The notes: generated from the letters alone by a model not told the origin. A stretch of 64,000 bases of DNA from an uncultured virus (IMG/VR IMGVR_UViG_3300025131_000021) (IMGVR_UViG_3300025131_000021:1-64000), one strand, 5' to 3'. Positions 1 to 29,264 are shown, counted from the first letter of the stretch. A program made the numbers and translations.

Positions 1-3000
1 AGTATGGCAAATCTGATAACTATTAAGACCAACACTAACTGCACTTGCTGTTTTAGAAACTTTTGCTTTAAACACTCTATAAAAATTACTTGGATAAATT
101 TTGCTTGAACCTGATACACCTACACCTGTTGCACTAACTGTATTTGCATCAATATCTTCAGTAATACACATTGAACTTGTTAAACCTGAATTATCACTAG
201 CAGTAAAAGTAATTGCACCATCTGCGGATCCATTAACCAATGCACAAACTGCACCTGCGGCTGAATTATATGCATAAGAGCTAATTATATCTGAGTCGAT
301 TGTTCCGCCAGTATCTGTTGTTCTATCAACTGCTGAACCTGCCGATAATGTAGCACCGCCAGTATTGTCTGTAAATCCATGTGCTAACTTAGGACTTGTT
401 CCAGTATCTTCACCTGTAAAACCTATTGTTTTAGCACTTAATCCGGCTGGTGCGGCAGGCGTTGCTAAAATATCCATAGTAAAGTTTTCAGTATCATCAG
501 TAGCATTTAAACTTAATGTTGGATTATATGCTAATAAATTACCATTATATGTTCCTGTTCCTACTGATGTATAATCATGTGTAATGTTAGTTCCTACATC
601 ACCTGGATTACTACTACCGTGGGCCATGCAATCAAGAGCTGAACTATCGCCCCAATTATATTCATAGCATGTAGCATTTTGTGATGTATTAGCGGCACAT
701 CCTAACGCATAATTAAGTCCATCATATCCAGTTACAGCATATCCTCTAACGTTGCTTGCATTATCAATACCTGTTGATTCGTTTTGGAATATTACTGCTA
801 CATTAGATCTTGGATCTGGCTTAATTGTTATTGTACATGCCGATGTTACAAACGGACTGCTTGTGTGTCCGTTATATGCTTGCAAGCATACATCACGTGT
901 TACTGTGGTACCTGAGGCTTGTTCACCTGTTGTTAAATCAAAAGTATGTGCAACGGCAACATTATAATCGCCTGCTCCACCGCCTCCTGCGGCAACTTCG
1001 CATGTTGAACCATCATCAAATGTCCACTTCCAACAGTTTCCTGCACCAAAATTACTTGCAGATCCTAGTGTATCAACAGTACCTGTAAAGTTAACAACTA
1101 AACCACTTGTTGCTTCTTCATTATTTCCACTATTAACATCACTTGTAAATGCTGGTGTTTGTGAACTCCAAACACATACACATTTAACTTCGCTAAGTGG
1201 AAGTACTGACGGGTTAGTTGTGCTATGATTATCCATTCTCAAACATACTGAATAACGTGTATCTGCATCTGGTGAATTTGTCCATGTGTGTGCTAATCCT
1301 GCACCATCTCGTCCACCTGCGGCGGCATCAGTTGCAATACATGCATCGGAACTATCACCCCAAAATATTGTATAATCAGCAGTATTACCATATGAAGTTG
1401 TAGCACCTGTTTCTGTTGATGTATTGCATATGCAAGCGGCTGAAGCACTATCCCAGCCAGCAGTTGTAACATTTGCCGGATTTCCATCATACATTGCCCA
1501 TTCAATATCCGGAGTTGGAGTAGCAATTAACATATAATCTGTACAATCTAATGTTATTTCTGAACCATAACCTATACCACTTGTATGCTTTGCAGTTGCA
1601 CAAACTGTATTACATCCTACTGCACCCGATCCATATGTTTTTGAAACTGTACATGAACCATCACACGATACACTTGTTAATTTGCAATCCGAAGTTCCGT
1701 CACCCCAGTCGATATCAATACATGATGGATTACCCATCCAGCAAAATGTAAAAGCAATAGCGGTATTAGCACTTGAAATACATTGTCCTGCATCATAATC
1801 CGAATCTGTACTCCAAGATATATCTCTAACATAAGTATCTCGTCTTACATTTAATATTGTATCGTTTAAAATATGAATTGCGTCTGCTAAACCATCTGTG
1901 TTTTCAAGACATACACTAGCACCTTCTCGTGTTCCGCTATATCCAGATGTTAATTGTGGTGTTCTGTGGAATACACCTGCATATCCGGCCGGTGTACCAA
2001 TAGCACTACCAGACCCTGACGAATCAGTTATTACATTAGCGACACATAAATCAGCAAGTGCCGTTCCAAGTTTTAATTCAAATTTATCAGTTGTTTCGTT
2101 CCATGTAATATGTGCATTATCATCAGTTCCACGTTCAATTTCAAGTCCTGCATTTTCTGATGGTGTTCCTGTTTCGTCGGCATTTAATGTCATAATTGCA
2201 TCGCCAATCAGCACACAATTTGAACATACCGCAGTTTGCGTTCCTGCTACTGTTAAACTACCACCTATATGAACATCACATCCTACACCTAAACCACCTG
2301 TTACAATAACTGCACCACTTGAAGCAGATGTTGAATTTGTTGTATCTGTTACACAAGTTGCACCAGAAACATCTGCGTCACCTGTTACTGATAAACGTGA
2401 TGCTGAAAACGTTAAGTTTGAACTATCTTCTACTTCACCATTTGTTCCTGCTAATGCAATTCTTCCTGTTGTTAAATCACATACTTGTAAACTACTTGCT
2501 ATACCACATGCTAATGTTGCGGTACCTGTAGTATTAATAGTATCTGCACAAATATCATCAATATATGCATCTTCCCATCTCTTAGTGGTAGCACCTAAAT
2601 TATATGTATCACTTGCATTAGGAATAATATGAGAATGTACATCCGCACCAATTGTTAATTCATCTGTATCTGCATCACCTAAAGTAATATTACCGCTGGC
2701 AGTAATATTTGCACCAATAATATTACCAGTTGCATTTATATTTCCACCAACACATACATCACATGCTACACCAAGACCACCTTTTACTTGTAATGCTCCT
2801 GTGGTAGTACTTGTTGAATTTGTTACATCACAAAAAATACCAGTACAAGCATCTACATCATCAATAAATCCATCTTCCCATCGTTGTGTAACAGAACCTA
2901 AATTATATGTATCACTTGCATTAGGAATAATATGAGATGTAATATCACCACTAACAGTAATATCATCTGCGGCTGTATCACCTAAAGTAACATCACCGCT

Positions 3001-3423
3001 AAGTTGTACGCCATCAGCAAACACTTTATTAAATGCTTGTGTTGAACTACCTAAACAAACAGTACTTTCAAAGGTTAAATCAAAACATGCTCCTGTACCA
3101 GTTCCACCTGCGGTTGCGTTTCCAGTTGTAGTTGTTGGCTTAACATCATAGATGCCAGCACATTTAATAGCGGCAGTTTGGATAATTCCACTACCGTCAA
3201 CAGTTTGTACACAGATTGTTCCTACTTCCGATCCTGATGCAGTGGTTGCGCCAGTATTGTCTACGCAGATAATATCGTTTGCGGTGTATCCTGTTCCTGC
3301 GGTATTAATCGAAATAGCGGTAAGATTGAGTGAAGCAAGTAGATTACCCCTAAGGTACCCGCCTGCCTTTGCTAATTTTTTCTTTTCAAGTTTGTTAATT
3401 AACCCGGTATTAATTATGCTCAT
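1..3423 (-). CDS. Large Cys-rich virion fibre/structural protein with PKD-like domains (partial, >=1141 aa, runs off left edge; absent from ORF track)
   Basis: Manual translation from ATG at 3423 (MSIINTGLINKLEKKKLAKAGG...) is open to position 1. It has fibre repeats (TSTTTGALQVKGGLGVACDVCVGG, HIIPNASDTYNLG..RWED) and PKD-type motifs (IDWGDGTS, WTFDDGS, YNWGDSS). ATAAATA box upstream. Confidence 0.85.
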   Translation of the reverse strand, partial: MSIINTGLINKLEKKKLAKAGGYLRGNLLASLNLTAISINTAGTGYTANDIICVDNTGATTASGSEVGTICVQTVDGSGIIQTAAIKCAGIYDVKPTTTTGNATAGGTGTGACFDLTFESTVCLGSSTQAFNKVFADGVQLSGDVTLGDTAADDITVSGDITSHIIPNASDTYNLGSVTQRWEDGFIDDVDACTGIFCDVTNSTSTTTGALQVKGGLGVACDVCVGGNINATGNIIGANITASGNITLGDADTDELTIGADVHSHIIPNASDTYNLGATTKRWEDAYIDDICADTINTTGTATLACGIASSLQVCDLTTGRIALAGTNGEVEDSSNLTFSASRLSVTGDADVSGATCVTDTTNSTSASSGAVIVTGGLGVGCDVHIGGSLTVAGTQTAVCSNCVLIGDAIMTLNADETGTPSENAGLEIERGTDDNAHITWNETTDKFELKLGTALADLCVANVITDSSGSGSAIGTPAGYAGVFHRTPQLTSGYSGTREGASVCLENTDGLADAIHILNDTILNVRRDTYVRDISWSTDSDYDAGQCISSANTAIAFTFCWMGNPSCIDIDWGDGTSDCKLTSVSCDGSCTVSKTYGSGAVGCNTVCATAKHTSGIGYGSEITLDCTDYMLIATPTPDIEWAMYDGNPANVTTAGWDSASAACICNTSTETGATTSYGNTADYTIFWGDSSDACIATDAAAGGRDGAGLAHTWTNSPDADTRYSVCLRMDNHSTTNPSVLPLSEVKCVCVWSSQTPAFTSDVNSGNNEEATSGLVVNFTGTVDTLGSASNFGAGNCWKWTFDDGSTCEVAAGGGGAGDYNVAVAHTFDLTTGEQASGTTVTRDVCLQAYNGHTSSPFVTSACTITIKPDPRSNVAVIFQNESTGIDNASNVRGYAVTGYDGLNYALGCAANTSQNATCYEYNWGDSSALDCMAHGSSNPGDVGTNITHDYTSVGTGTYNGNLLAYNPTLSLNATDDTENFTMDILATPAAPAGLSAKTIGFTGEDTGTSPKLAHGFTDNTGGATLSAGSAVDRTTDTGGTIDSDIISSYAYNSAAGAVCALVNGSADGAITFTASDNSGLTSSMCITEDIDANTVSATGVGVSGSSKIYPSNFYRVFKAKVSKTASAVSVGLNSYQICHT

Positions 3424-3450
3424 TTAACTTCCAATACACCTTTGTAGTAA

Positions 3451-3457
3451 TATTTAT
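3451..3457 (-). promoter_or_regulatory. Putative gp55-type late promoter (ATAAATA)
   Basis: Matches the T4 late promoter core TATAAATA; intergenic, upstream of a structural gene. Confidence 0.6.
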
Positions 3458-3460
3458 TTG

Positions 3461-3886
3461 TCATATTTTAGTCCATGTTGTACATACTAACTGATCATCT
3501 ACGTTATATGTCAAACATTGAGTAAAAAGTTTTGTTGATCCATTTGTGTCATAGTAATCAACTATGTTTAAATTATCGTTGCTATCATAACATAAACATT
3601 GCATGTTTCCGGTTACATAACAAACTTTCTCCATTAAGTCACTGGCATTATATACCATACAAGATACATTAGTTTCATTTAATGCCGAATCTAATCTATT
3701 TGCTACCCGTACCCAATTATCATCATAATATGTTTCTAAAGAACATATTGTTGAGTTATATCTCAAAAGTCCATCTACTGGTGTTCCATCACGTTGTGCA
3801 GTTGTTCCAACCGAAACTTTAATGGAACCAGTTCCATCGAATCTTGGGTTTTCAGACATTAGTGATGTTGGTACTCTTGTTGTCAT
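3461..3886 (-). CDS. Small virion structural/adaptor protein, Cys-rich
   Basis: VSVGTTAQR...GLLRYNST module, shared with 9939..10289 and 15490..16428; 7 Cys in 141 aa. Confidence 0.7.
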   Translation of the reverse strand: MTTRVPTSLMSENPRFDGTGSIKVSVGTTAQRDGTPVDGLLRYNSTICSLETYYDDNWVRVANRLDSALNETNVSCMVYNASDLMEKVCYVTGNMQCLCYDSNDNLNIVDYYDTNGSTKLFTQCLTYNVDDQLVCTTWTKI

Positions 3887-3896
3887 AAAAAAATCC

Positions 3897-4163
3897 TTAT
3901 AATACTACATGTATTCTTGCTACTATGTCAACACTTAATGGTGGAGCAGTTACAAAAATAATTGTTTGTGTACTATTATTAAAAGTATAATCTGTTGTCG
4001 GTTTTTGTAAAACACCTGATAATTGCACCATTAAATCTTTCGCATCAACGCTTCTTTCACTGGCTGGAAAGTTGCTTAACGCATAATCGGTTAGGCTCCC
4101 GTCCCCAACGAACGTCCACATCATAAGATCTGAATTTATTAATGGTTGGCCAATGTATGACAT
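3897..4163 (-). CDS. Small virion structural protein
   Basis: MSYIGQP N-terminus and FVGDGS..VQLSGVLQKPTTDYT..IIFVTAP beta-repeat typical of phage structural proteins. Confidence 0.7.
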   Translation of the reverse strand: MSYIGQPLINSDLMMWTFVGDGSLTDYALSNFPASERSVDAKDLMVQLSGVLQKPTTDYTFNNSTQTIIFVTAPPLSVDIVARIHVVL

Positions 4164-4186
4164 AAAATTCCCTTGTTATATAATAT

Positions 4187-4516
4187 TTAGCTGAGTTCTA
4201 AAACACTCATTACAACGTCACAATCCGTACTTGAACTTTGCAATTTCAAACTATCATTCGGTTCTAAATTTACTACTTTATCGACAACTAATGTTGTATT
4301 TTTAAAAACAGTAATATCCTTCATGATATATTTGTCGGTAGCCGCACTTGCATCATGCAAGACAAGACTAACAACAATACCACCGGTTATTAATTTATTT
4401 GAAATATATATTGCATGAACAATGGAGCCATTTATACTCGCACCTGCGGTATATAGGGTTTCTAATGTGTCTGCGGTAGTAATTGTAGTTGATGTATTTT
4501 TAAATGCAATAGCCAT
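4187..4516 (-). CDS. Small virion structural protein
   Basis: MAIAFKN...TLYTA...KVVNLEPNDSLKL..VVMSVLELS jelly-roll-like small protein common in aquatic phage structural clusters; ATAAATA at 4546-4552. Confidence 0.7.
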   Translation of the reverse strand: MAIAFKNTSTTITTADTLETLYTAGASINGSIVHAIYISNKLITGGIVVSLVLHDASAATDKYIMKDITVFKNTTLVVDKVVNLEPNDSLKLQSSSTDCDVVMSVLELS

Positions 4517-4552
4517 TAGGCAACGTCCATAAAATCTATTTTAGATATTTAT

Positions 4553-7500
4553 CTATTTTAGATCTTCCAGCGCCTTGACTTTTGAGGACAGTTCTTTAAT
4601 TGCATTAGTTAAAATAGGTATCATTTTAACATAATCCAACCAATAATCTGATTCTTTTTCATTATCATTAGGGGTATGTTGCAACATTGATACTGTATTC
4701 TTATCAATTCCTAATTCAGTCAATGCATCTTCCATTTCCTGTGCAATAAAACCAAACTGCTTTGGATCAGTATTATCACTTACAGTTGTTCTATAACTAA
4801 TAGGATCTAAACAAGTGACAAATTCCAGTCCTAATGGTAGTGATTCAATATCACATTTAATTTTTCTATCAGAAGGTGATTGTGTCGCATCAGTGCTAAT
4901 TGCGTACACTTCAGTACCTTGTTTTTGTATAGAAAGTACTTTACCATTAGTAGCATCATTGCGATTTAGTGTCATTGTAGTAACATTCGGACTTATAAAT
5001 GTACTAGCACCATCGCATGTAATGCACATTCTTTTTACTGGTGTACCGTGTGTATAAACAATATAATCTCCAGATGCATCCATGCACATATCATTTGTAC
5101 TATTAAATTGTAATGCTCCGCCAGAATTGAAGCATATATTAGAGCAATAACTTACAGTATCACAAAATGTTGTTGCTCCTTGAAATGTAACTGCGCCAGT
5201 ATTTGAATTAATTGCCGAAACAATGTTAGCATCAGATGCCCATTTATTTGTTAATCCTTCTACTAAGTCATCTGTAGTTTCAGCTCTTAATAATATACCA
5301 CCTTGTTTACCCATGCTAGTATGATTAGCACAACCATAAGAATATCTAGCCTTTGCACTTGTTGGTACAACAAATTGAATATAGGTAGTCGCGGCATTAG
5401 TAAAAGAGGCAACATAATCTGCGGCTGTGGAATATGTATTTCCTCCAACATGATATGATACTCCGGCTGGAGTAGTTGGATTTGATCCTCCATTAAAATC
5501 TACATCTTCTGACAATACTAAAGGATGCCCGGCGTTTGATGCTCCTGATTGTATAATTTTATATGTAAAACCTGGTACAAAATATAGATATGGTTGTGGG
5601 CTCCCACTATCAAATTTAAATTTACTATCAACAACAGTAACATCAAGTTCAATAATAGGAGTGGATGCCGCGGCAGTTGAATCCCACTGTGATCCATCCC
5701 ATCTCATATAATCGCCAGTTCCAGGACTTATTGAAGAATTAACATCACATAATTTTTTAATTGAAGCATCTTGAAGATGTGTATTAAAACATGTCTGATC
5801 ATATGGACTTGTTGAGGTTGCCCAGCAAAATGCTGATCCATTATAATAAAGATATGAGTTAGTTGTTGGACCTGCTGGTACATCACATAAAGTTAAAACT
5901 GAGCTATCACAAACATCAGTTGGTAATGTAATTTGCCCGGTTATGTTATTATAAGCACCTATACCAGAAGTAACACAAACGGAAGCTCTTGCTCTAGTAT
6001 CTGTAAAGTATAATGGACTTGCCCCAAATTCATCAATATCGCATGTATATAAATTAATTGCACCAGTTTTTTCATTAACACAAGTTACATCATTAGTATT
6101 TTGATCTGTTTTAACTTTCCAAGATGTTGTACTATGATTATAATATAAAACTTTACCGTCATCAGCTGATGATACTGCATCAACGTCTGATAAACAAGCA
6201 AAATTTGTAGCACAAATTCGTGTATCTACTCGTGCATCTGTATAATATAAGTTTGACGAACCTTCAGTTACGCAATCTGTACTTGTAGTAACATTATCAA
6301 CATATGCTTTTACTGATTGTTGAGATGGTACTTTAGTTGCACTATTTGAAACCATATTATCTTCGTCAACTAAAGCATTTGTTATTCTTGCATCTGCTCT
6401 TGTATCTGTAAAATATAAGTTTGTTGAACCTTCTGTAATTTCGTCTGTATTATCTTTGCTTGCTACTTGTGCATCAACATATGCTTTTACTGATTGCTGA
6501 GATGGAAGTTTTGTTGCACTATCTGAAACCATGTTATCTTCATCAATTAATGCATTTGTAATTCTTGCATCAGCTCTTACATTTGTATAATATAAATTAC
6601 CACTTTCAGTTATATCACATGTACATAAATTAACATCACCGTGTAAACTATTAATACTCGATACAATAGCAGATAGACCCATTATGCCTGTTGTGCTATT
6701 ATATGTTAAAGCGGAACCACTTACAGAAATTGCACTTCTTGCTTTGGCATCTGTATAATATTGATTAACACATTCATTTATATCACAAGAATGAAGTACA
6801 ACCGCTCCTGTTTTTGTATTAACTTGTGATACTGCATCTGTAAAAGACATAACACCAGTACTATTATTATATGCCAAGGATCCACTAACTGTAATTGCGG
6901 CTCTTGCTCTAGCATCTGTGTAATATAAATCAGTATCTTCTGCTAAATCGCATGTTTTCTTAGTTGCAAAATCTGTATCAAAATCAGCAGTTTTATACGT
7001 TGTTGCTGAAATTACTCCAGTTGCACTATTATACGATATATCACCACTACTACTTAAATGAGCTCTTGTTTCTGATGCAACAGGACCAGTAAATGTAAAC
7101 ACACCAGTCGAACTGTTATATACCATGCTACCATCACCGCCAGCATCTGTTAGTGAAACGGCTCCTCTAGCCCTTGCATTTGTATAATATAAATTACCAC
7201 TTTCAGTTATATCACATGTACATAAATTTATAGAACCAGTGTTTGAGTTAACACAAGTAACACCACCCGTTACAGTAATAACACCAGTACTTGAGTTATA
7301 ACTACCTGAACCAGTTACACTAATTGCTCCTCTAGCCCTTGCATCTGTATAATACAAATCAGTACACTCCGAAATATCACAAGTATAATGATTTGAAACA
7401 TCTGAAATTTTACCATATAAACAATCCGAACGTATAGGCTTATTAAACACCCATTCGTCGTTTGTGCTTGCATAAAGTATTGTAGCATATGGAACAGGAT

Positions 7501-8578
7501 TAGCAGAGCAACATAAAGTTAATTTCAATCCACCACTATTTGCGGCCGAAGGGTTAGTAACAGCGGTTCCTAAAATAGTATTAATCGCACCAATATTTTG
7601 TGTTTCACAACTAACTTGAGTTGTTGTTCCACAAACAGTTAAATCACCAGTGATTAATGAATCACCACAAACTGTAACACAAGCACCTGTATCACATGCT
7701 ATTAATGTATTTGTTATAATATCATCTGCAACTAAATCGTTTGTAACTGTAACACAATTAAAAGTTACATTATTAGTTGTGCCAACTGCTTGTCCTATTG
7801 CTACTGCTCCACTTGTAACTGTAACACCTGTTCCAGCAGTTATAGCGGCACGAGCTCTTGCATCTGTATAATATAGATTTCCACTCTCTGTAATATCACA
7901 TGTACATAAATCAATCGAACCTGTATTTTCATTAACACAAGTGACACCACCTGTAACGTTAATAACACCAGTTGAATTGTCGTAACTACCTGAACCAGTT
8001 ACACTAATTGCTCCACGGACTCGTGCAGTTGTATGATATTGATTAGTCGAGCCTTCAGTTAAATCATCTGTATCATTATTATCTAATGATTCTTTTTGTC
8101 CATCAACATCACAACTAATTGTTTGTAATCGAGTAGCAGAAGGGTGCTTTCTGAGTCTTAATAAATTAGCACCTGTGCCAATTTGTATTTCATCAACAAT
8201 AATCTTTTTTAAGTTATTTGAATCATCTTGTATTTTAAGATCGCCTGAAGCATCTCTAGATAATTTTGTACCAGCAATATCAATAGTGGTACCAGCAGTA
8301 TAGATATCGTTCCATCGCTTTGTTGATGAGCCTAAATCTCTACAACAAGTTTGATCAGGAATTAATGAAGTATCAACAGTATCAAACGATGCGTATATAT
8401 TAGCATCGGATGCATATAAATTCGATCCTTCACTTAAATCAGTTGTAGATTTGGCTGTAAAATCCGTATTAAAACAGGATGAAGCATAATCTGTTTTTGC
8501 ATCTATCTGTGTTTGTACATCAGATGTTACGTTTGCTAGAAAAGGTACCTTATCTGCAATATCTCTGGCTCTACTCAT
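4553..8578 (-). CDS. Long tail fibre with TDDLxEGxxNLYYTxARA repeats, cupredoxin-like domain and C-terminal peptidase S74 intramolecular chaperone
   Basis: Repeated (T/C)DITESGNLYYTDARAR units; H...CxxHxxM motif; C-terminal SDRKIK...FGFIAQE...LTNAIKELSSKVKALE. Confidence 0.85.
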   Translation of the reverse strand: MSRARDIADKVPFLANVTSDVQTQIDAKTDYASSCFNTDFTAKSTTDLSEGSNLYASDANIYASFDTVDTSLIPDQTCCRDLGSSTKRWNDIYTAGTTIDIAGTKLSRDASGDLKIQDDSNNLKKIIVDEIQIGTGANLLRLRKHPSATRLQTISCDVDGQKESLDNNDTDDLTEGSTNQYHTTARVRGAISVTGSGSYDNSTGVINVTGGVTCVNENTGSIDLCTCDITESGNLYYTDARARAAITAGTGVTVTSGAVAIGQAVGTTNNVTFNCVTVTNDLVADDIITNTLIACDTGACVTVCGDSLITGDLTVCGTTTQVSCETQNIGAINTILGTAVTNPSAANSGGLKLTLCCSANPVPYATILYASTNDEWVFNKPIRSDCLYGKISDVSNHYTCDISECTDLYYTDARARGAISVTGSGSYNSSTGVITVTGGVTCVNSNTGSINLCTCDITESGNLYYTNARARGAVSLTDAGGDGSMVYNSSTGVFTFTGPVASETRAHLSSSGDISYNSATGVISATTYKTADFDTDFATKKTCDLAEDTDLYYTDARARAAITVSGSLAYNNSTGVMSFTDAVSQVNTKTGAVVLHSCDINECVNQYYTDAKARSAISVSGSALTYNSTTGIMGLSAIVSSINSLHGDVNLCTCDITESGNLYYTNVRADARITNALIDEDNMVSDSATKLPSQQSVKAYVDAQVASKDNTDEITEGSTNLYFTDTRADARITNALVDEDNMVSNSATKVPSQQSVKAYVDNVTTSTDCVTEGSSNLYYTDARVDTRICATNFACLSDVDAVSSADDGKVLYYNHSTTSWKVKTDQNTNDVTCVNEKTGAINLYTCDIDEFGASPLYFTDTRARASVCVTSGIGAYNNITGQITLPTDVCDSSVLTLCDVPAGPTTNSYLYYNGSAFCWATSTSPYDQTCFNTHLQDASIKKLCDVNSSISPGTGDYMRWDGSQWDSTAAASTPIIELDVTVVDSKFKFDSGSPQPYLYFVPGFTYKIIQSGASNAGHPLVLSEDVDFNGGSNPTTPAGVSYHVGGNTYSTAADYVASFTNAATTYIQFVVPTSAKARYSYGCANHTSMGKQGGILLRAETTDDLVEGLTNKWASDANIVSAINSNTGAVTFQGATTFCDTVSYCSNICFNSGGALQFNSTNDMCMDASGDYIVYTHGTPVKRMCITCDGASTFISPNVTTMTLNRNDATNGKVLSIQKQGTEVYAISTDATQSPSDRKIKCDIESLPLGLEFVTCLDPISYRTTVSDNTDPKQFGFIAQEMEDALTELGIDKNTVSMLQHTPNDNEKESDYWLDYVKMIPILTNAIKELSSKVKALEDLK

Positions 8579-9935
8579 TGAGCTCCTCCATTAATAACTT
8601 ATAAAATTTCCCATTTGTATGGTTAAAAACTCTTATATATTCTGATTGCTCATCAAGTGTAAAATGTCCGTTATCGTTGTGCATATGTAAATCACCAATA
8701 GTAGTTGACGAAGCAAATACGTCTTTCCAACGTTTTCCTGCTTCTCCTAAACAATGAGTATCATCAACACTAGGAAGAATATGATTTGGAAATGCTTGCA
8801 TCTGGGCACAAGTATAATGACTTGCTGAATCAAATGTTGCATAGGAAACTGTTTCTAATACATCACTAACATTTGCACCTGAATTTAATACAACCGAAGT
8901 ATTGTTGTTTGCTACAAAATCATTTGATGCACCTTCTATTAATTTAATACCATTTAAAAATACATCTATGTGTCCTGTTGTATAGCATTGTGCAGGCGTA
9001 AACGTTGTTTGACTAGCAGTTGCCGTAAATGCTTCTGTTACAATAGTGCTTCTTTCAGCATTACCATTTGTAATACATAATTGTTTCGGGTTTGATCCTG
9101 TATTTGTTGCTATTGTAATACCTGTTCCTGCTACTACTTCTAATGTATCATTATTAGTAGCAACTAAACTGCTTTGTCCTGATACTTCTAATGTTTTATA
9201 TGATACACCTGAACTTCCAACAGTAACAGTACCACTACCATTATCAGTTAATTCAAATCCACAATTAACATCAAATTTAAAAGTATCTACATTTGCTACT
9301 ATGGTATTTGAAACTGGATCGTTTATTTCACATACATTAATAGCAACTCCTGCATCACACCATGCAAAAGCACTACCTGTCCAAATAAGATTTTGATTAC
9401 TACTAGGACTTGCAGGAATATCACATAATGATTCAATACCAACACCTAGTGTTCCGTTTGTAGCACACCCTGATGTACCTATATTAAGTACACCTGTTGA
9501 ATCAGATGATAAAACAGTATCGCATACTGTAAGAGTACCATCCATACTAACATTTCGCAATGTAGCAATATCTTTATTAGCATCAACAACAAGAGCATTA
9601 TTACCGGCTACTGTACCATCTGTAATTCCATTAATTTTTGCAATATCGGTTTCGGAAACACTTTCTGCACCCATACATAATATATCTGTACAAACTGCTG
9701 TAGAAGCACAAATTGTTCCAACATCAATATTGGCTGTTTTTACACCAACTGTATAAACACATTTCCATTGATTTGTATTACCATCGCTCCCGACTCCGTC
9801 TAAACCAATACAATATGAGTCGTGGTCAATAGGTACAATGTTCTGATTAATTTGAGTAAGATCAACACCCGATTGAGTTAGTTGCCTCTTATTGTTATAA
9901 TTAATATTAGGATTAAAATATGAAAAAGATCCCAC
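8571..9935 (-). CDS. Fibre/virion structural protein, Cys-rich
   Basis: GTG start; beta-rich fibre motifs (FTATASQTTF..IDVFLNGIKL, HILPSVDDTHCLGEAGKRWKD, TIGDLHMHN). Confidence 0.75.
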   Translation of the reverse strand: MGSFSYFNPNINYNNKRQLTQSGVDLTQINQNIVPIDHDSYCIGLDGVGSDGNTNQWKCVYTVGVKTANIDVGTICASTAVCTDILCMGAESVSETDIAKINGITDGTVAGNNALVVDANKDIATLRNVSMDGTLTVCDTVLSSDSTGVLNIGTSGCATNGTLGVGIESLCDIPASPSSNQNLIWTGSAFAWCDAGVAINVCEINDPVSNTIVANVDTFKFDVNCGFELTDNGSGTVTVGSSGVSYKTLEVSGQSSLVATNNDTLEVVAGTGITIATNTGSNPKQLCITNGNAERSTIVTEAFTATASQTTFTPAQCYTTGHIDVFLNGIKLIEGASNDFVANNNTSVVLNSGANVSDVLETVSYATFDSASHYTCAQMQAFPNHILPSVDDTHCLGEAGKRWKDVFASSTTIGDLHMHNDNGHFTLDEQSEYIRVFNHTNGKFYKLLMEELNE

Positions 9936-9938
9936 TTA

Positions 9939-10289
9939 CTATCCTCCTAACGCTATTGCAAATGCAATAGCACTTTCATCTATTTGTGATTGCAACGAAG
10001 TCGTTGACGGTTTAAAACTTGACGAAACTGTATCATATGTTAAGTAATATCCTGCCGCCGGAGTTACACTTGAATCATATGAAACCACATTTTTCCAAGT
10101 AGCATTACCATAATGTTCTAATTGATTTGTATCACTATTAAATCTTAAAGATCCATCAGTTGCAACACCTGTTTGCGAACGCCCCGAAGTTGTACCAACA
10201 GGTAATATAATAGCACCATTTTGATCAACAGTTAAAACTTGACTGCTACTACTGATTTTGTTTAATTGATGATTTAAATTTATTGCCAT
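9939..10289 (-). CDS. Small virion structural/adaptor protein
   Basis: LPVGTTSGR..GSLRFNSDT module; C-terminal AIAFAIALGG. Confidence 0.7.
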   Translation of the reverse strand: MAINLNHQLNKISSSSQVLTVDQNGAIILPVGTTSGRSQTGVATDGSLRFNSDTNQLEHYGNATWKNVVSYDSSVTPAAGYYLTYDTVSSSFKPSTTSLQSQIDESAIAFAIALGG

Positions 10290-10299
10290 TTTTTATTTC

Positions 10300-11892
10300 C
10301 TAACTTGTAATCATACTATGATACGGTTCTATATAAGGCATTCTTAAATATCTATTTGGTGCACCACATATACTATCGTCATTATTATAATCATCATCTA
10401 ATCCTGTTGAATATAATCTATTTGCTATACCTTCATCAATGAGCCATTGATTAGCATCATCTTGTGTCCAAGTAGGATGAAGTTGTAACATACAAGCAAT
10501 TACTCCAGTTACTTGCGGACTTGCCATACTTGTACCTGATAATGCAGTAACTTTATAACTAGAATTTCTTGGATCATTGTAGCCACTTATATAAGGACTC
10601 ATAATATTTGATCCTGGTGCCCATATATGTAATCTTGCGCCTTTAGTTGACGAATATCTAGTTTGCTCATACCATGTTCCACCTGACGATAGATATGATC
10701 CTTCAACATTACCAACAAGTCCTATATTTGCTGTTGATGTTGTTGGTGTACCACCTCTATGATAATACTTAATACTATTATAATATTTGTCAAAATACCA
10801 ATTATTATAATCAATATGCCCTGAACCTACAATTACATACTTGTTATTGCCAGCGGCATTATACATTATTATTCCATCATCTATGCAATCTTGTACATCT
10901 GCATCAATTGATGAAACAAAATTACCATGAGTACTACTTACACCTATTCCTCTATTTTCTAATTCTGCTGGACTTGGCCAATCACTTCCAGTATAACTAC
11001 CAGCACCCCAATCACCATGTGATCCAGTATATTCATAAGTCCAATCTGTTCCTCTATAAGTTCCATAAACAGGTTGCAAAGCATTAGTATAATATGACCA
11101 ACTATTATTACAAACAGTAGGTCTACCTGCATTAGGACCTGATTTATTATTATGCCATCCTCTAATTAATTCAAAACAAGTATATGAACTAATTGCATAC
11201 GTATTTGATAATGTAGCCATTGCATATATGTCTGCACCTCTTGCCCAGCCGTGTGTATTACCTGCGGCTGTTCCTGCTACATGACTTCCGTGTCCGTTTT
11301 GATCGCTGTAAAAATTAGCATTTTGAGAACCAGAAATTCCTGATTCCGTATACCAATCTATTTCTTGTATTCGAGATCCACCAGTACCATCAGGATTAAC
11401 TGTGTACTCTGGATGCCCGGCAGTTATACCTGTATCAATTATAACTACATCAACACCTGTGCCATCTAATGCATAATCATGATCAGCGGTTATACTTGTA
11501 CTATTAACACCTCCAAATGCATCAGTATTATTAGTATAAGAACAACTACGTAATCCCCAATTTTTTATATCAGAACCTCCTGAAGTTCTATGAAATTGTG
11601 CATCTTCATATTTTCCAAGAGTCGTAACAGGCATATTTAATATTTCCTGTTTTAATTGTACATCTAGTACTCGCGAATCATTTCTTAATTCTGCGGCTTC
11701 TAAATGTGATAATGCATACTCTGTATTTCGTTTACTTCCCGGTCGTTTATCAACCCAATCAATAGGTTTATCCGGAATACTGGCTAAACTTGTATCAGAG
11801 TTTTTGAGCCCCGATGTGTCTTTTGTCATTTGATCAAAGAACTCTGACGGGTCACAATCTTTCTTCAGAGTAACTACATATTCTTGTTCCAT
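10300..11892 (-). CDS. Subtilisin-like serine protease (S8) with I9-like propeptide
   Basis: Catalytic motifs VVIIDTG, GHGSHVAG, NAAGN, GTSMASPQV; N-terminal EYVVTLKK. Confidence 0.93.
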   Translation of the reverse strand: MEQEYVVTLKKDCDPSEFFDQMTKDTSGLKNSDTSLASIPDKPIDWVDKRPGSKRNTEYALSHLEAAELRNDSRVLDVQLKQEILNMPVTTLGKYEDAQFHRTSGGSDIKNWGLRSCSYTNNTDAFGGVNSTSITADHDYALDGTGVDVVIIDTGITAGHPEYTVNPDGTGGSRIQEIDWYTESGISGSQNANFYSDQNGHGSHVAGTAAGNTHGWARGADIYAMATLSNTYAISSYTCFELIRGWHNNKSGPNAGRPTVCNNSWSYYTNALQPVYGTYRGTDWTYEYTGSHGDWGAGSYTGSDWPSPAELENRGIGVSSTHGNFVSSIDADVQDCIDDGIIMYNAAGNNKYVIVGSGHIDYNNWYFDKYYNSIKYYHRGGTPTTSTANIGLVGNVEGSYLSSGGTWYEQTRYSSTKGARLHIWAPGSNIMSPYISGYNDPRNSSYKVTALSGTSMASPQVTGVIACMLQLHPTWTQDDANQWLIDEGIANRLYSTGLDDDYNNDDSICGAPNRYLRMPYIEPYHSMITS

Positions 11893-11897
11893 AATAC

Positions 11898-11904
11898 TAT
11901 TTAT
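11898..11904 (-). promoter_or_regulatory. Putative late promoter 5 nt upstream of ATG (possibly leaderless mRNA)
   Basis: ATAAATA then GTATT then ATG; no Shine-Dalgarno room. Confidence 0.55.
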
Positions 11905-11916
11905 TGCAAAATATTA

Positions 11917-13734
11917 TTATGTAATTTCTATAGTCCAGGATCCGTCTTTAAAGGGCATGTTGGCGTATCGGTTATGTCCGCCATGTAGGCTGTCTGTAAC
12001 AGTATAATCTTGGCCGCCACCGAGCCAGGCTGCTGTGGGGCCTGCGCCATACCTATCTGCGGGAGTATTTGTAGTACCTTGGTGAATTGCTCCGGATTTA
12101 TGACATTCTGATCGTACAAAATCACGGACATTTTTTTGATTCCAATGAGGATTGGCTTCAAGTAAACAAGCAACCATACCACATACTTGTGGGCTTGCCA
12201 TACTTGTACCACTTAATGATTTCCAATGGTAACTAGAATCTCTAGGGTCGGTCCAGGAACTATTTGCGGCATTTACAGGTCCTGCAATATTAGTTCCGGG
12301 GGCCCATACATCTATTCTAGGTCCACTATTTGAATAATCTGCTTTTTTCTCTGTTGTTGTTCCAGGTTTATTAGTATCAGCGATTGCTCCAACACAAACA
12401 GGCATCATTCCATTATCATTCCAATGCGAACCTGGGGAGCCACCTTGCATATGTTTTATTGAGCCTCTACTAACAGTTCCGTATTCGGTTGCCCAGTCTC
12501 TACCTAAATCTGACATATTTAATTTTCTCGGACAACCATCAGTATCGTTATATGCAACATCTATTTTGTGATATTCATTACCTGCGGCGGCTACAAAAAT
12601 TACTCCAACATCCATACATTGTTCCATATCTGCTTTTATATCTGATCTAACTCGCGGATGCACCCAATAATTAGATGGATCATCTGTATCTTCGTATCCT
12701 GTTTCACCAAAAAATTCTTTACGTTGGTTTCCTGATGTATATCCTGCTTCAGCAAATCTGTAAGCCTGACCAGAATCATAAGGATAATCACCATATCTCC
12801 ATGCATGTATTGTCATATTCCAATAATGCTCTAAAATAATCCAACTTTGATTTACTACTGTAGGTCGTTTATATCCAGTTGATGCCTGGGCTGTTTTTTG
12901 TGTATGAAATGCTTCTATCATATCAAAACTATATGCATGAGAAACATATGCGGCATCTTGAATTTTTTGTGACCATATACCTGCTTCTGTTGCCCATCCA
13001 CAAGTATTACCTACTGCTATTCCAGCAACATGAGATCCATGTCCGTAACTATCATTATGATAACCATCATAACTATAACCACCAGGCATATTAATACCTA
13101 ATGCATTCCACCAATGATATGTGCTATCGTATCTTGAACCACCTGTGCCATCAGGATTAATTGCAAACTCGGGATGATCTCCTATTATACCTGTGTCTTG
13201 AATTATAACATCTACTCCTTTACCTGTCAAGTTATAACCATACTTTCCAGTAAGTTCTGTAGAGTTACTATTCCATCCTCCAGCAGTTGTAGTCATAGAA
13301 CGTAAACCCCAATTTACATCCCATGCTTGCGATGGACTCCTATCAAAATTCATATCAGTTGGTGCCCACCCTACTGCTCCTTGGGTACCTCTATAATGAC
13401 ATAATCCTATATTTTGATGGGGATCGTTTTCAAATGGAATTTGCACATCGTCGACTCTAGGATCTTTACGTAACTCTCGCACTTCTTCTAAAGACATGCT
13501 ATAATGTGTATTACAATTACTTTTTTCTCGTCTATTTACAGTATCTATAGTTCTTGTTGGTATTTGTCCTGTATCGGAAAGGGAGGCTGAATCACGAATC
13601 ATTTTATCATGAAAATCTGTTGCATCTGCATCTTTTTTTAATGTCACGATATACTCCTCTTGAGCAGTCATATCAAGACCGTTTGCAATTTCTTCTTCTT
13701 CTAGTGCTTTTAATTCATCTAATATGTCGCTCAT
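11917..13734 (-). CDS. Subtilisin-like serine protease (S8), paralog of adjacent gene
   Basis: VIIQDTG, GHGSHVAG, AAAGN, GTSMASPQV; shares NPDGTGGSR and DPRxSSY with its neighbour. Confidence 0.93.
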   Translation of the reverse strand: MSDILDELKALEEEEIANGLDMTAQEEYIVTLKKDADATDFHDKMIRDSASLSDTGQIPTRTIDTVNRREKSNCNTHYSMSLEEVRELRKDPRVDDVQIPFENDPHQNIGLCHYRGTQGAVGWAPTDMNFDRSPSQAWDVNWGLRSMTTTAGGWNSNSTELTGKYGYNLTGKGVDVIIQDTGIIGDHPEFAINPDGTGGSRYDSTYHWWNALGINMPGGYSYDGYHNDSYGHGSHVAGIAVGNTCGWATEAGIWSQKIQDAAYVSHAYSFDMIEAFHTQKTAQASTGYKRPTVVNQSWIILEHYWNMTIHAWRYGDYPYDSGQAYRFAEAGYTSGNQRKEFFGETGYEDTDDPSNYWVHPRVRSDIKADMEQCMDVGVIFVAAAGNEYHKIDVAYNDTDGCPRKLNMSDLGRDWATEYGTVSRGSIKHMQGGSPGSHWNDNGMMPVCVGAIADTNKPGTTTEKKADYSNSGPRIDVWAPGTNIAGPVNAANSSWTDPRDSSYHWKSLSGTSMASPQVCGMVACLLEANPHWNQKNVRDFVRSECHKSGAIHQGTTNTPADRYGAGPTAAWLGGGQDYTVTDSLHGGHNRYANMPFKDGSWTIEIT

Positions 13735-14708
13735 TATGTATTCACCACCGTAGCTCTAGTATCAAATCTAAGCCAATTAGTGCCATCATAAAATACTGGA
13801 GTAGGTTGAGCATTACTAGATCCGTCTGTTGCATCACATGCATATGCTATTGCTCCTGCACTTGGTGCGCCTAGAGCATTTAAAGCGGTAACTGTACATA
13901 CTGCTAAACCAATAGGCGAACACGCTCTTGTTTCACCAGCGGCGTTAAGACAAATATAATTTCCTGCATTTATATTAAATGTGCCTGATGCAGTTGTAAT
14001 CAAACAACATGAAATACATAAAGTATTAGCAACTAATGTTCCACCAATATGTGCATTACATGCAATGCCTACACCACCAGATACCATAAATGCACCTGTT
14101 GTTGAACTTGTTGATTGGGTTGTATTTGTTATAGTAAGTGTACCATCAGTACAATAACAAACATCATGTCCTGAATATTTGCAAAGATAGCCTGTTCCTG
14201 AACCACCTGTAATACCTGTTAAGTTACTTCCATCACCAATGAAACAATCAGCAGTAACATTTCCACCAACTTTTATATCGCATACTACACTAATTCCGCC
14301 ATCGGTTTGTATAGACCCATCAGTTGTAGATGTTGCATTTGTAGTATTTTCAGTATATATTTTACTTTCTGATATAATATGTCCTTCAATATACGCATCG
14401 CATTTAACACCTAAGCCTCCTGAGCAGGCTATTAAAGAACCGGTTACTCCTGATGTTGCATTAGTATTTTGAGTTGCGGTATAAACTGTGGCTGATTGAA
14501 TTGTATTACAAGTAAGAGTACCGGAGACTGTCATGTCTCCTGCTACATTAATGTCACCACCAATCCAAGCATCACATGCAATACCGGCTCCACCTAGCAT
14601 TACTAAGGCACCTGTGCTAGTACTTGTTGAATTTGTTGTTGTCTTAAGACATAATTTATCTGCGGTTAAATTATAATCACCGCAAATACAAGAAGTGATG
14701 TCAGTCAT
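13734..14708 (-). CDS. Cys-rich fibre/decoration protein
   Basis: TNSTSTSTGALxxxGGxGIACD repeats; 20 Cys in 324 aa. Confidence 0.8.
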   Translation of the reverse strand: MTDITSCICGDYNLTADKLCLKTTTNSTSTSTGALVMLGGAGIACDAWIGGDINVAGDMTVSGTLTCNTIQSATVYTATQNTNATSGVTGSLIACSGGLGVKCDAYIEGHIISESKIYTENTTNATSTTDGSIQTDGGISVVCDIKVGGNVTADCFIGDGSNLTGITGGSGTGYLCKYSGHDVCYCTDGTLTITNTTQSTSSTTGAFMVSGGVGIACNAHIGGTLVANTLCISCCLITTASGTFNINAGNYICLNAAGETRACSPIGLAVCTVTALNALGAPSAGAIAYACDATDGSSNAQPTPVFYDGTNWLRFDTRATVVNT

Positions 14709-14719
14709 TAGTGATTATC

Positions 14720-15481
14720 CTAGTGTAAATCTGTCCATGCACCGTTAGCATATCCTCTAAATTTGCAAGTATCGGATTTATAATACATTTGGCCTTCGGC
14801 ACCTGCTGGATCACTTGTGGCAGTATGAAGTTGAACAACATTGCTCATTGTTAATTTACCAGCAATGTATGCATCACAAGCAACTCCAATTCCTCCATCT
14901 GTTTGTATTGAGCCAGTTGTACCACTAGTTGAATTAGTAGTACTGTCAACAGTAATGGCACCAGCAATGTATGCATCACAAGTAACTCCAAGTCCGCCAT
15001 CTGTTTGTATTGAGCCAGTTGTACCATTAGTTGAATTAGTAGTACTATCGACAGTGATGGCACCACCAATATATACATCACAAGCAACTCCAAGTCCACC
15101 AGCATTAGTAATAGCACCTGTGGTTGTGCTAGTTGAATTCGTTGTATCTGTTGCACTAATAATACCTGCGGCTATTGTTTTAACAAAAACACAATTCCAT
15201 TTTTGTGGCGCAGAACCTAAATTATAGGTTTCATCTGTATCGGGTATAATATGTGATATTACATCAGCAGTAAAACAAACAGAATCAGTATTAGCATCAC
15301 CAATAACTGTATTACCAGTGGCATATAAATTACCTCCAACACAAATATCTTTAGTAACACCAACTCCACCTGCAACAACTAACGCACCGGTTGTTGTACT
15401 TGTTGAATTTGTGTCACTTATTATTGTTACACATGTTGAATCAATACTATATTCGCCTGCTATTTTTTCTGTATGTTTCAT
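14720..15481 (-). CDS. Cys-rich fibre/decoration protein with 34-aa tandem repeats
   Basis: DSTTNSTxGTTGSIQTDGGxGVxCDAYIAG repeats. Confidence 0.8.
   Translation of the reverse strand: MKHTEKIAGEYSIDSTCVTIISDTNSTSTTTGALVVAGGVGVTKDICVGGNLYATGNTVIGDANTDSVCFTADVISHIIPDTDETYNLGSAPQKWNCVFVKTIAAGIISATDTTNSTSTTTGAITNAGGLGVACDVYIGGAITVDSTTNSTNGTTGSIQTDGGLGVTCDAYIAGAITVDSTTNSTSGTTGSIQTDGGIGVACDAYIAGKLTMSNVVQLHTATSDPAGAEGQMYYKSDTCKFRGYANGAWTDLH
14861..15064. repeat. 102-bp tandem direct repeat (two near-identical copies; a degenerate third follows)
   Basis: agcaatgtatgcatcacaag... recurs at 14861 and 14963. Confidence 0.8.
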
Positions 15482-15489
15482 TTATATCT

Positions 15490-16428
15490 CTAATGTAAAT
15501 CTGTCCATGCTCCATTAGCGTATCCTCTGAACTTGCAAGTATCTGTTTTATAATACATCATTCCTTCAGTTCCTGCAGGATCGCTAGTTGCACCATGTAA
15601 TTTAATTGTTCCGCCCATTGTTAAACTTGTTAATGTACCAACACTTGTAATACCTGCTTGTGCGGCATCTACACTTAAAGAATGGGCAACATTTTCTCCG
15701 GTAGTTGCTCCTGAAGATGTTAGTCCGGTTCCAGCAGTTAATGTTCCAACATAGTTACCGGAAGTATCAGTACCAAGTGTAACCGAATTTGCTTGAATTG
15801 TTGCTGTTCCTGTTACATTTCCTGATCCATCAAACCCACTTGAAGTCCATACAACATCTCCTGTCATACCAATAGTTCTAGCCGTTGTAAGTTTATCAGC
15901 AGTTCCTGATGAACCACCAGTTGAGCCAGCAGTTGTAGCACAACAAACTGAAAAATCACATGCTAATACTTTTTTAAATGCATTATCAGTTGCATCAACA
16001 ACTACTAGATAATCAGTGTTACTGTCAATTGGATTATACATTTGATCGCATATAACACCTGTGCTAACAGTCATACAACCACTAGAAGCAAGAGTTATAT
16101 CTCCTGAAACTGCTTTTGCGGTATAGCAACTTCCTTGCCCTACTAATACATTTCCTGCAGATGCAGTTGCAGTAACAACATCTGTTAAACAATTAAGGGC
16201 TAAACCAGTTGTGTGTGCTACTGATTTCCAAGTACATGAAGATGGATCAGAATCAAAATATTCTACTGCATATGTTTCATTATTATATCTTAACGAACCA
16301 CCTTTTAGTGTACTACCTGAAGCACAACGAGAAGCAGTATTACCAGCAGGCAACACCATATTACTACATGTGCCTACTTCTAAATTGCTCGGTGCTGAGC
16401 TCGGATATGGTACTATTACTGAAGTCAT
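15490..16428 (-). CDS. Cys-rich fibre/decoration protein (likely start ATG 16428, MTSVIVPYP)
   Basis: The ORF-track start at 16623 runs through the MCP terminator; ATAAATA lies at 16455-16461; ADKLTTARTI fibre motif. Confidence 0.8.
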   Translation of the reverse strand: MTSVIVPYPSSAPSNLEVGTCSNMVLPAGNTASRCASGSTLKGGSLRYNNETYAVEYFDSDPSSCTWKSVAHTTGLALNCLTDVVTATASAGNVLVGQGSCYTAKAVSGDITLASSGCMTVSTGVICDQMYNPIDSNTDYLVVVDATDNAFKKVLACDFSVCCATTAGSTGGSSGTADKLTTARTIGMTGDVVWTSSGFDGSGNVTGTATIQANSVTLGTDTSGNYVGTLTAGTGLTSSGATTGENVAHSLSVDAAQAGITSVGTLTSLTMGGTIKLHGATSDPAGTEGMMYYKTDTCKFRGYANGAWTDLH

Positions 16429-28858: not shown

Positions 28859-29264
28859 CCTCTTGTATTGTTATAGCACCGGAGTCTACTTCTGCTTCTA
28901 CCGCGGCTTCGTTTATTGCTGTTAAATCTTCAAGTGATTCTTTTACTTCATCAACTGCTTCTTCTTCGGGTATATCCAATACACTCATTTCAGGTTCACT
29001 AAGATTTGGAGGGTCAAGTGCTTTCCATAAATCCTCTAATGTAAACCCTGAATCAATCCCGCATGAGCGGTCAATGTCAAATCCATCATCTACGTTTATT
29101 CCCTCTTTTTGAAGCCAATCTATAAACGCAGGATAATTTCCATCATCTTTAAACCCGGCTAAAGAAATAATGCCAGGTGCTTCACCTACGCTATTTGAAT
29201 GCTTCCATGCTCGTTTAACTATACCTGATAATAGTTCTTCATCGTTTGTTCTTTCTACTGTCAT
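28848..29264 (-). CDS. Acidic hypothetical protein (likely start ATG 29264)
   Basis: AGGA RBS before ATG overlapping the pyrD stop. Confidence 0.6.
   Translation of the reverse strand: MTVERTNDEELLSGIVKRAWKHSNSVGEAPGIISLAGFKDDGNYPAFIDWLQKEGINVDDGFDIDRSCGIDSGFTLEDLWKALDPPNLSEPEMSVLDIPEEEAVDEVKESLEDLTAINEAAVEAEVDSGAITIQEDAE

Follow-up and report, generated by a model that had tools for sequence, protein, structure and literature searches.

The DNA analysed here, referred to below as the window, comprises bases 1 to 64,000 of a 73.5-kb contig of an uncultured virus (IMGVR_UViG_3300025131_000021) that is estimated to be ~20% complete. Positions 1 to 16428 hold a cluster of 12 open reading frames (ORFs) for fibre and decoration proteins, in which cysteine (Cys) is far more frequent than in the rest of the window, and which runs up to the gene for the major capsid protein. 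The window also carries a T4-type morphogenesis region with a gp23-type capsid protein, a portal protein, a prohead protease, and gp25-like and other baseplate proteins; in Pfam, Portal_T4 was matched with an expect value (E) of 2e-101, and Peptidase_S77, GPW_gp25, and T4_baseplate were also matched. The capsid protein (389 amino acids, aa; positions 16523 to 17692, minus strand; Pfam Gp23, E 8e-97) bounds the Cys-rich cluster on one side and served as our clade marker. In tblastn searches it was 65.6% identical, over 100% of the query, to the proteins of Cronobacter phage GAP32 and Pectobacterium phage CBB, 68.9% identical to that of Vibrio phage 2.275.O, and 73.3% identical to that of Sinorhizobium phage Phosso. 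Judged by these identities, the source is an uncultured marine relative of the Rak2/GAP32-like T4-type jumbo phages, and its genome exceeds 200 kb, since a 100%-identical stretch sits in a metagenome contig of 312,575 bases. The phage is recurrent and real: the 7.9-kb stretch at positions 8571 to 16428 was found in 20 sequencing runs from 16 studies, all labelled marine or seawater metagenome; seven of the runs are possible sources, and no RNA run was among the listed holders of this stretch.

The 12 ORFs of the cluster contain 167 Cys in 5,414 aa (3.08%), compared with 104 in 15,424 aa (0.67%) for the other 39 ORFs of the window (odds ratio, 4.7; Fisher p, 2.3e-35). A preliminary description of this DNA, based on hand counts, had reported 46 Cys in a protein of 1,341 aa, 20 in one of 324 aa, and 7 in one of 141 aa, against 2 in the 389-aa capsid protein, 2 in the 571-aa portal protein, none in the 388-aa scaffold protein, 2 in a protein of 1,115 aa, and 16 in one of 3,592 aa. 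All of these counts were recovered, as were, in the translations, all of the repeat variants that it quoted, and we found four more Cys-rich ORFs. Its description of the enrichment as a property of the whole cluster holds for seven proteins but not for three small ORFs (0, 1, and 0 Cys) or for two subtilases (1.3 and 1.5% Cys). The core virion proteins have 0 to 0.5% Cys, below the 0.9% quoted for T4 in an excerpt of PMC10811340. At 1.83% Cys, the 74 nonstructural ORFs of the phage on an overlapping contig lie between the two groups, so that Cys is more abundant in the fibres than in the enzymes of the same phage, which include many iron-sulfur proteins. The Cys residues are mostly isolated, as the preliminary description had stated: just 4 CxxC, 8 CxC, and 4 CC occur among 143 successive Cys gaps, and the closely spaced, paired CxxC or CxC of zinc ribbons and metal clusters was not found in the cluster.

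All 12 ORFs lie on the minus strand. The first (positions 1 to 3423) encodes the N-terminal 1,141 aa of a fibre protein, with 43 Cys (3.8%); its C-terminal part lies beyond the window start, and on an overlapping contig of 100% identity the complete protein has 1,525 aa and 44 Cys. There the cluster continues with a 1,065-aa Peptidase_S74 fibre with 10 Cys (0.94%), after which nonstructural genes begin. The 1,141-aa part carries two copies of the motif GGxG[IV]x-C-D, and residues 520 to 880 of the full protein look like tandem immunoglobulin (Ig)/PKD-like domains with 19 Cys. The 141-aa protein (3461 to 3886; 5.0% Cys) has an 80%-identical orthologue in relative L189, likewise with 7 Cys, whereas two matching ORFs in L056 (39% identical over 71 aa and 42% over 45 aa) have none. 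Two small ORFs that are not Cys rich follow (88 aa, 3897 to 4163, no Cys; 109 aa, 4187 to 4516, 1 Cys).

The 1,341-aa tail fibre (4553 to 8578; 3.4% Cys) ends in an intramolecular-chaperone domain (Peptidase_S74, residues 1236 to 1290; E 1.2e-9; 38.7 bits against a cutoff of 22), as does the 1,065-aa fibre beyond the window; the 324-aa protein has no such domain. The 454-aa fibre-like protein (8571 to 9935) has 15 Cys (3.3%), all of them retained in L183; its counterparts in L188 and L189 have 2.8% Cys, and a relative in L068 has none. A Cys-free 116-aa protein (9939 to 10289), conserved beside the fibres in related phages, precedes a pair of paralogous subtilisin-family (S8) proteases of 530 aa (10300 to 11892) and 605 aa (11917 to 13734), matched to Peptidase_S8 with E values of 4e-24 and 2e-23. 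Subtilases are conserved at the same place in L188 and L189 and also occur in the Cys-poor relative L050; they may be virion-associated proteases.

Next to the proteases lies the most Cys-rich protein of the cluster, the 324-aa fibre or decoration protein (13734 to 14708; 6.2% Cys), which has four motifs of the form GGxG[IV]x-C-[DN]. The 253-aa fibre or decoration protein (14720 to 15481; 8 Cys, 3.2%) is built from three 34-aa repeats, in each of which one Cys occupies the motif position, and has weak PHROG matches to head decoration and structural proteins. The 312-aa protein (15490 to 16428), encoded immediately downstream of the capsid gene, has 11 Cys (3.5%); its L184 orthologue, with the same start methionine, has 14 in 319 aa. 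The 253- and 312-aa proteins have in common a nearly identical C-terminal module of ~35 residues that includes one conserved Cys, and a related ending was seen in P0003 to P0005; this may be a shared attachment or knob module.

Cysteine in homologous proteins and the positions it occupies

The fibres of a phage determine its host range and, of all virion parts, are the most exposed to the environment. We determined the Cys content of the best 120 homologues of the 1,341-aa fibre and of the 324-aa protein. Among those of the fibre (proteins of 750 to 2,340 aa), 118 have 0 to 0.27% Cys, with a median of 0; the two exceptions, at 99 and 82% identity, both contain 46 Cys. For the 324-aa protein, Cys contents of 3.5 to 6.5% occur in the five closest homologues (99, 88, 35, 35, and 42% identical), and the remaining 115 have at most 1.83%, the median over all 120 being 0.2%. 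(A tblastn search of a phage database with the 324-aa protein gave no match, to which the low-complexity filter may contribute.) For the 1,141-aa protein, 144 of 149 library representatives have less than 1% Cys, 44 of them none at all, and the three with at least 2% are an 82%-identical protein (41 Cys in 1,394 aa) and two short fragments. At 80 related loci whose capsid proteins are 72 to 77% identical to that of the window, 39 fibre-like ORFs (defined as at least 600 aa with at least 18% Ser plus Thr) contain 84 Cys in 43,744 aa (0.19%; maximum, 0.85%). Locus L024 encodes a 1,391-aa orthologue of the 1,525-aa protein, 48% identical over 683 aa, with 2 Cys. By the preliminary description's own account, its proposal would fall if homologues had the same Cys frequency; clearly they do not, and homologous fibres elsewhere are nearly free of Cys, a contrast sharper than the one within the window and our strongest result.

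The same description had called the enrichment lineage specific, and this was borne out. Cys richness is confined to a clade in which capsid proteins are 93 to 99% identical and fibres 39 to 91% identical. In L184 and L185 (capsid 99% identical) the fibres are 66 to 91% identical and have 3.2 to 6.5% Cys; in L188 and L189 (capsid 93% identical over the part present) they are 39 to 80% identical, retain the gene order, and have 3.0 to 5.4% Cys, including a 701-aa fragment with 31 Cys. Capsid identities of 77 to 93% are not represented in the sample. The trait has thus outlasted substantial divergence of the fibres themselves. Separately, two Cys-poor relatives, in which the large fibres have almost no Cys, carry just downstream of the capsid gene a mid-sized ORF with 3.1 to 3.4% Cys (L028:11757-12827, 11 in 356 aa; L023:10833-11534, 8 in 233 aa).

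The motifs that the Cys residues occupy are those of PHROG 697 structural proteins of cyanophages, pelagiphages, and roseophages and of Peptidase_S74-tipped fibres (GGxG[IV]xx[DN]xx[IV]GG and TDD[ILV]xEG..NLYFT, with the same chaperone domain), families that are essentially Cys free. In the first motif, G-G-x-G-[IV]-x-X-[DN]-x-x-[IV]-G-G, Cys occupies position X in 9 of the 10 copies that three proteins of the window contain and in 13 of 14 copies in relatives from the clade, but in none of 244 copies in Cys-poor homologues, where the residue is Lys (84), Gly (81), Ser (21), Gln (17), or Glu (14). In the second motif, x-T-D-D-[ILV]-x-E-G..N-L-Y-F-T, 635 of 770 homologue copies have the first Asp and none of the 770 has Cys instead; here, 6 of 8 copies have Cys at this position. 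In the eight copies of the 1,341-aa fibre, moreover, the Gly of this motif (752 of 770 in homologues) is twice Cys and three times Ser, and the third position, which is Asp, Asn, Ser, or Thr in homologues, is Cys in three. Over the whole of this fibre, Cys aligns mainly with Ser, Ala, Thr, Asp, and Gly of homologues, while in the Ig-like region of the 1,525-aa protein it stands at an invariant Tyr, at a near-invariant Glu, and at many Thr and Asn of six Cys-poor orthologues. These alignments show that Cys has replaced Thr, Asp, Ser, Asn, and Lys or Gly clade-wide across the exposed appendages (the tail fibres and the decoration or head-fibre-like proteins encoded just downstream of the capsid gene), whereas the capsid, portal, scaffold, tail, and baseplate proteins are still Cys poor.

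We compared the replacements with neutral expectation. Against the 48%-identical, Cys-poor orthologue, Cys is found at 26 of 320 differing sites in the protein of the window and at 1 in the orthologue, that is, at 8.1% of sites against 3.2% expected (2.5 times the neutral value; p, 1.8e-5). Every Cys in this comparison falls at a differing site, the largest net gain being that of Cys (+25) and the largest net loss that of Thr (−28). Of five other pairings, four gave 5.9 to 6.7% Cys (three with p < 0.003, one with p = 0.11) and one gave 4.5% (p, 0.18). Most of the gains, from Thr, Asp, and Asn, require two base changes. Once present, Cys is well kept over short distances: at 82 to 88% identity, 64 of 66 Cys were retained compared with ~85% of other residues (p, 0.0017), and in the 1,341-aa fibre, 44 of 46 are found in the 82%-identical homologue. 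Against L184, 32 Cys codons are unchanged, 5 changed synonymously, 1 is replaced, and 1 is deleted; for the two-codon residues Asn, Asp, His, Tyr, and Phe, 110 are unchanged, 18 changed synonymously, and 24 are replaced. One Ig-like domain has six Cys in both lineages, three of them at differing positions, as would be expected if Cys pairs matter.

Selection had been proposed in the preliminary description, and the directional net gain, the fixed motif positions, and the conservation above background all support it. Pure drift is disfavoured by the excess at differing sites, by the replacement of conserved motif residues, by the above-background retention, and by the persistence of the trait in L188 and L189. 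From these comparisons, we read the pattern as selection for Cys that acts partly on number or density rather than on each position. With hundreds of homologues that lack Cys in 1,200 to 2,000 residues, a single clade that reverses the rule is a natural experiment on Cys chemistry in seawater, and the existence of Cys-rich and Cys-free orthologues that are 48% identical makes the contrast easy to test.

Candidate explanations for the cysteines

At stake for the virion are covalent hardening, redox gating, adhesion mediated by metal or thiols, and enzymatic cross-links. The preliminary description knew of no system that would explain the Cys residues, which goes too far, as disulfide-networked virions have been described for phages Milano, 7-7-1, and Pam3, with Cys in the core particle or at the joint between fibre and baseplate. 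Excerpts of PMC10811340 and PMC10491603 give 1.4% Cys overall and 2.1 to 2.4% in structural proteins for Milano (0.7% being quoted for A511) and report disulfides that join sheath, tube, baseplate, tailspike, and short fibre, as well as a stability that is abolished by dithiothreitol (DTT). An excerpt of PMC12796354 gives 1.45% overall and 2.58% in four capsid proteins for 7-7-1. As far as these excerpts go, the likeness lies in a clade-limited rise of Cys in the structural proteins of a contractile-tailed phage, with the Cys conserved within a small clade. The particles of these two Agrobacterium phages are assembled in the cytoplasm, stabilized by disulfides, and sensitive to DTT, and the bonds were seen in maps; our data are sequences. 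Their Cys-rich parts, again according to the excerpts, are capsid, neck, sheath, tube, and baseplate, together with a small number of N-terminal Cys of fibres, with 2.1 to 2.6% Cys in structural proteins. The phage of the window is set apart from both by this description: its core has 0 to 0.5%, and enrichment, to 3 to 6%, is found only in peripheral fibre and decoration proteins. In cyanophage Pam3, an excerpt of PMC9942802 reports, a single Cys per fibre chain (Cys28) bonds to Cys-rich wedge loops, a feature that, like the one considered here, places Cys in a trimeric tail fibre of an aquatic myophage, in Pam3 for covalent, redox-reversible attachment. On that account the two differ in that the wedge and baseplate proteins of our phage are Cys poor (2 in 1,115 aa and 16 in 3,592 aa) and dozens of Cys are strung along the fibres. 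We found no paper in the open-access literature on cluster-wide Cys substitution in otherwise Cys-free fibre families.

Structure predictions were made for two of the proteins. Modelled as three copies, the 324-aa protein scored 0.88 against 0.00 for the best control, with at least 82% of contacts agreeing between runs and partner pLDDT (predicted local distance difference test) values of at least 87; in calibration, 20 of 30 solved pairs and 1 of 23 single chains attained this mark, figures that hold only roughly for a 43-row alignment and three copies. The model supports, but does not prove, an intertwined homotrimer. Residues 520 to 880 of the 1,525-aa protein gave an all-beta AlphaFold model of modest confidence (mean pLDDT, 61.9), for which the best Foldseek matches were the SorCS2 PKD, SiiE BIg, and FN3 arrays at an E of 2e-6 but template modelling (TM) scores of just 0.2 to 0.3; no Pfam family was matched in this region at E ≤ 0.01, and WGDG-type motifs were seen in it by eye. 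Sequence searches of the PDB gave nothing usable (best E of 0.4 for the 253-aa protein, no match for the 1,341-aa fibre, and E of 0.7 with a profile of the 324-aa family). By a crude test, none of 13 cluster proteins has a strongly hydrophobic, signal-peptide-like N terminus (the maximum 10-residue Kyte-Doolittle mean in the first 40 residues was 1.83 or less), from which synthesis and assembly in the cytoplasm are presumed.

Our best guess, which we put forward tentatively, is that the fibre Cys are cross-linked by oxidation after lysis. Having no export signal, the fibre proteins would fold in the reducing cytoplasm as thiols, and on lysis into oxic seawater neighbouring Cys would oxidize to disulfides. 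Such bonds would link Cys inside the Ig-like domains and inside the distal knobs, and might also join subunits, fibres, or fibre and capsid. The outermost and most exposed parts of the particle would be hardened covalently, as disulfides harden the tail and capsid of Milano, and Cys of the shaft motifs that have no Cys partner in the trimer model would either stay free or bond elsewhere. If this explanation is right, a principle known from the core particle of Milano also holds for the receptor-binding periphery; if it is not, the alternatives are more novel.

In our assessment, the precedents, the Ig-like domains, and the distal knobs agree with oxidative cross-linking after lysis; the shaft-motif Cys do not, and they are among several points that weigh against it. 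In the trimer model, the listed cross-chain contacts run from residue i to i ± 6, the four motif Cys face Gly rather than Cys, and no Cys-Cys pair occurs among the 25 best-listed ones; 7 of the 20 Cys lie within the listed interface, and the 7 Cys of the C-terminal 95 residues lie outside it. Spacing in the cluster proteins is unclustered, with 26 of 143 successive gaps of 5 residues or fewer, about the random expectation. Odd Cys counts (7, 11, 15, and 21) occur beside even ones (46, 44, 20, and 8), a mixture that led us to set aside count parity as a test for disulfides. Base composition alone predicts 2.7 to 3.3% Cys, a value matched by six of the seven Cys-rich proteins (3.2 to 3.8%) and surpassed only by the 324-aa protein (6.2%; p, 0.006). 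At 42% identity, 10 of 19 Cys positions are kept, no better than the background. Finally, we ran Pfam scans over 184 ORFs in ~190 kb (29 in the window, 9 in the rest of its contig, 71 in the overlapping contig G004, and 75 in G001 and the 94%-related G005) and found no thioredoxin-fold protein, DsbA, or sulfhydryl oxidase; profile searches of G005 to G008 for thioredoxin and DsbA likewise gave nothing over the cutoff.

For the partnerless Cys of the shafts, free-thiol or metal chemistry and enzymatic modification are the candidates. In the former, which corresponds to the thiol-studded surface of the preliminary description, a regular array of exposed thiolates along the fibre seams would function free or metal bound, in binding soft metals (Zn, Cu, Fe, or Cd), scavenging oxidants, or attaching to the host through thiol-disulfide exchange. 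At the motif position, 217 of 244 homologue copies have Lys, Gly, Ser, Gln, or Glu, a pattern typical of solvent exposure; the 34-aa repeats contribute one Cys each, with no Cys at the cross-chain register of the trimer model; odd counts are common; and the replacement of a conserved acidic residue of TDD by Cys could switch a site for hard cations to one for soft ones. Free surface thiols are, however, short-lived in oxic seawater, the exposure is deduced from substitution patterns alone, local metal-binding patterns are nearly absent (4 CxxC in 150 Cys), and the general Pfam scans found no metal-handling gene nearby. On balance we think it unlikely that the Cys serve as free or metal-bound thiols.

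A bolder proposal is that the Cys are handles for covalent chemistry that the phage runs or exploits, whether by enzymatic thioether or hydroxylation cross-links that mature a whole virion surface or as a thiol array that captures the host through exchange or metal bridging. It would amount to a new principle of fibre building or binding, and we regard it as decidedly unlikely.

Relaxed avoidance of Cys, for example in a virion that lives at low oxygen, would let Cys drift without function to the frequency set by base composition. The agreement of six proteins with the mononucleotide expectation, the random-looking spacing, and the turnover of positions at 42% identity are what it predicts, and by itself it could produce the bulk content. 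It would not predict the excess of Cys at differing sites, the replacement of strongly conserved motif residues at the same positions each time, the short-distance conservation above background, the two base changes needed for most gains, or the 5.3 to 6.5% Cys of the 324-aa family in two diverged lineages, and the core virion proteins of the same phage still avoid Cys. Relaxed avoidance thus accounts, in our analysis, for the bulk content but not for positions or conservation, and as a full explanation it is improbable.

Enzymatic modification, in which radical SAM (S-adenosylmethionine) enzymes of the SPASM/twitch type, Asp/Asn beta-hydroxylase-like enzymes, and TauD-type oxygenases would turn fibre Cys and adjacent Asp, Asn, or Thr into thioether or other covalent links as in ribosomally synthesized and posttranslationally modified peptides (RiPPs), draws on genes elsewhere in the genome. 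On the contig of the window, a tandem array at 66.4 to 70.5 kb (L085:3432-7552) comprises two N_Twi_rSAM genes (E 5e-94 and 7e-86) and a third radical SAM gene, and Radical_SAM was matched 13 times in G004, an overlapping contig of 100% identity, and 16 times in G005, several of the matches being accompanied by SPASM domains. Asp_Arg_Hydrox genes number three in G004 (54464 to 54898, 60944 to 61168, and 61546 to 61776) and three in G005, compared with none in the complete genome of a Cys-poor relative (G006), none in a 52%-complete one, and one match below the cutoff in a 49%-complete one. The motif Cys, furthermore, always precedes Asp or Asn. Against this, Cys-poor relatives have 12 (in a complete genome of 374 kb), 8, 4, 5, and 2 Radical_SAM matches, which makes the radical SAM set a trait of the larger clade that is not tied to Cys, and one contig (L036/L133) has both an enzyme homologue and Cys-free fibres. 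The enzymes lie ~50 kb from the fibres among genes for sugar and nucleotide metabolism, where chemistry on glycans, DNA, or metabolites is at least as likely, and we identified no leader-like sequence or dedicated partner. The hydroxylase contrast, which compares a single Cys-rich lineage with a few, mostly incomplete contigs, is a lead rather than evidence. We consider enzymatic modification highly doubtful. An artefact (misassembly, wrong reading frames, or a different code for TGT and TGC) has a negligible chance of being the explanation, given the long intact ORFs with orthologues in the same gene order, the recurrence of the genes at 97 to 100% identity in several independent contigs, the presence of the stretch in 20 runs from 16 studies, and the sparing, normal use of TGT and TGC by core genes of the same contig.

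Further candidates and other genes of the phage

Three narrower candidates were also considered; the first was downgraded and the other two were dropped. A RiPP-type maturase would be expected next to its Cys-rich substrate and to co-occur with it, but the enzymes are ~50 kb away and Cys-poor relatives carry them too. The cluster's subtilases were considered as leader peptidases of the lanthipeptide type; none of the Pfam scans revealed a family resembling LanB, LanC, or LanM, and the Cys-poor L050 has the same subtilase. A phage-encoded tRNA-Cys that would meet the demand for Cys was not found in the ~190 kb examined, in which we found only tRNA-Asp, tRNA-Thr, and tRNA-Tyr (G001:10931-11915, ~13 to 14 kb before the window start).

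The whole jumbo-phage clade has an unusually large arsenal of radical SAM genes. The hydroxylase-like genes adjoin TauD-type dioxygenases, a carbamoyltransferase, AMP-binding enzymes, a nitroreductase-like protein, and sugar-nucleotide enzymes, a neighbourhood that looks like a large modification or biosynthesis island. Host-like genes for metabolism and transport in the nonstructural regions of G004 and G005 encode a TctA transporter, an OpuAC-type binding protein with an ABC permease, NAD synthase, UDP-glucose dehydrogenase, ThyX, GTP cyclohydrolase I, a QueC-like protein, and a fatty-acid desaturase.

Within the window, the 3,592-aa giant protein of the baseplate region (48772 to 59550, plus strand) has a CBM_5_12 carbohydrate-binding module at residues 2106 to 2138. 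The baseplate genes are interspersed with one whose 532-aa product has C-type lectin and Lcl_C-like domains (41841 to 43439, minus strand) and one for a 444-aa MORN-repeat protein (39422 to 40756, plus strand), and a further host-like metabolic gene, of the dihydroorotate-dehydrogenase type, lies at 29261 to 29956.

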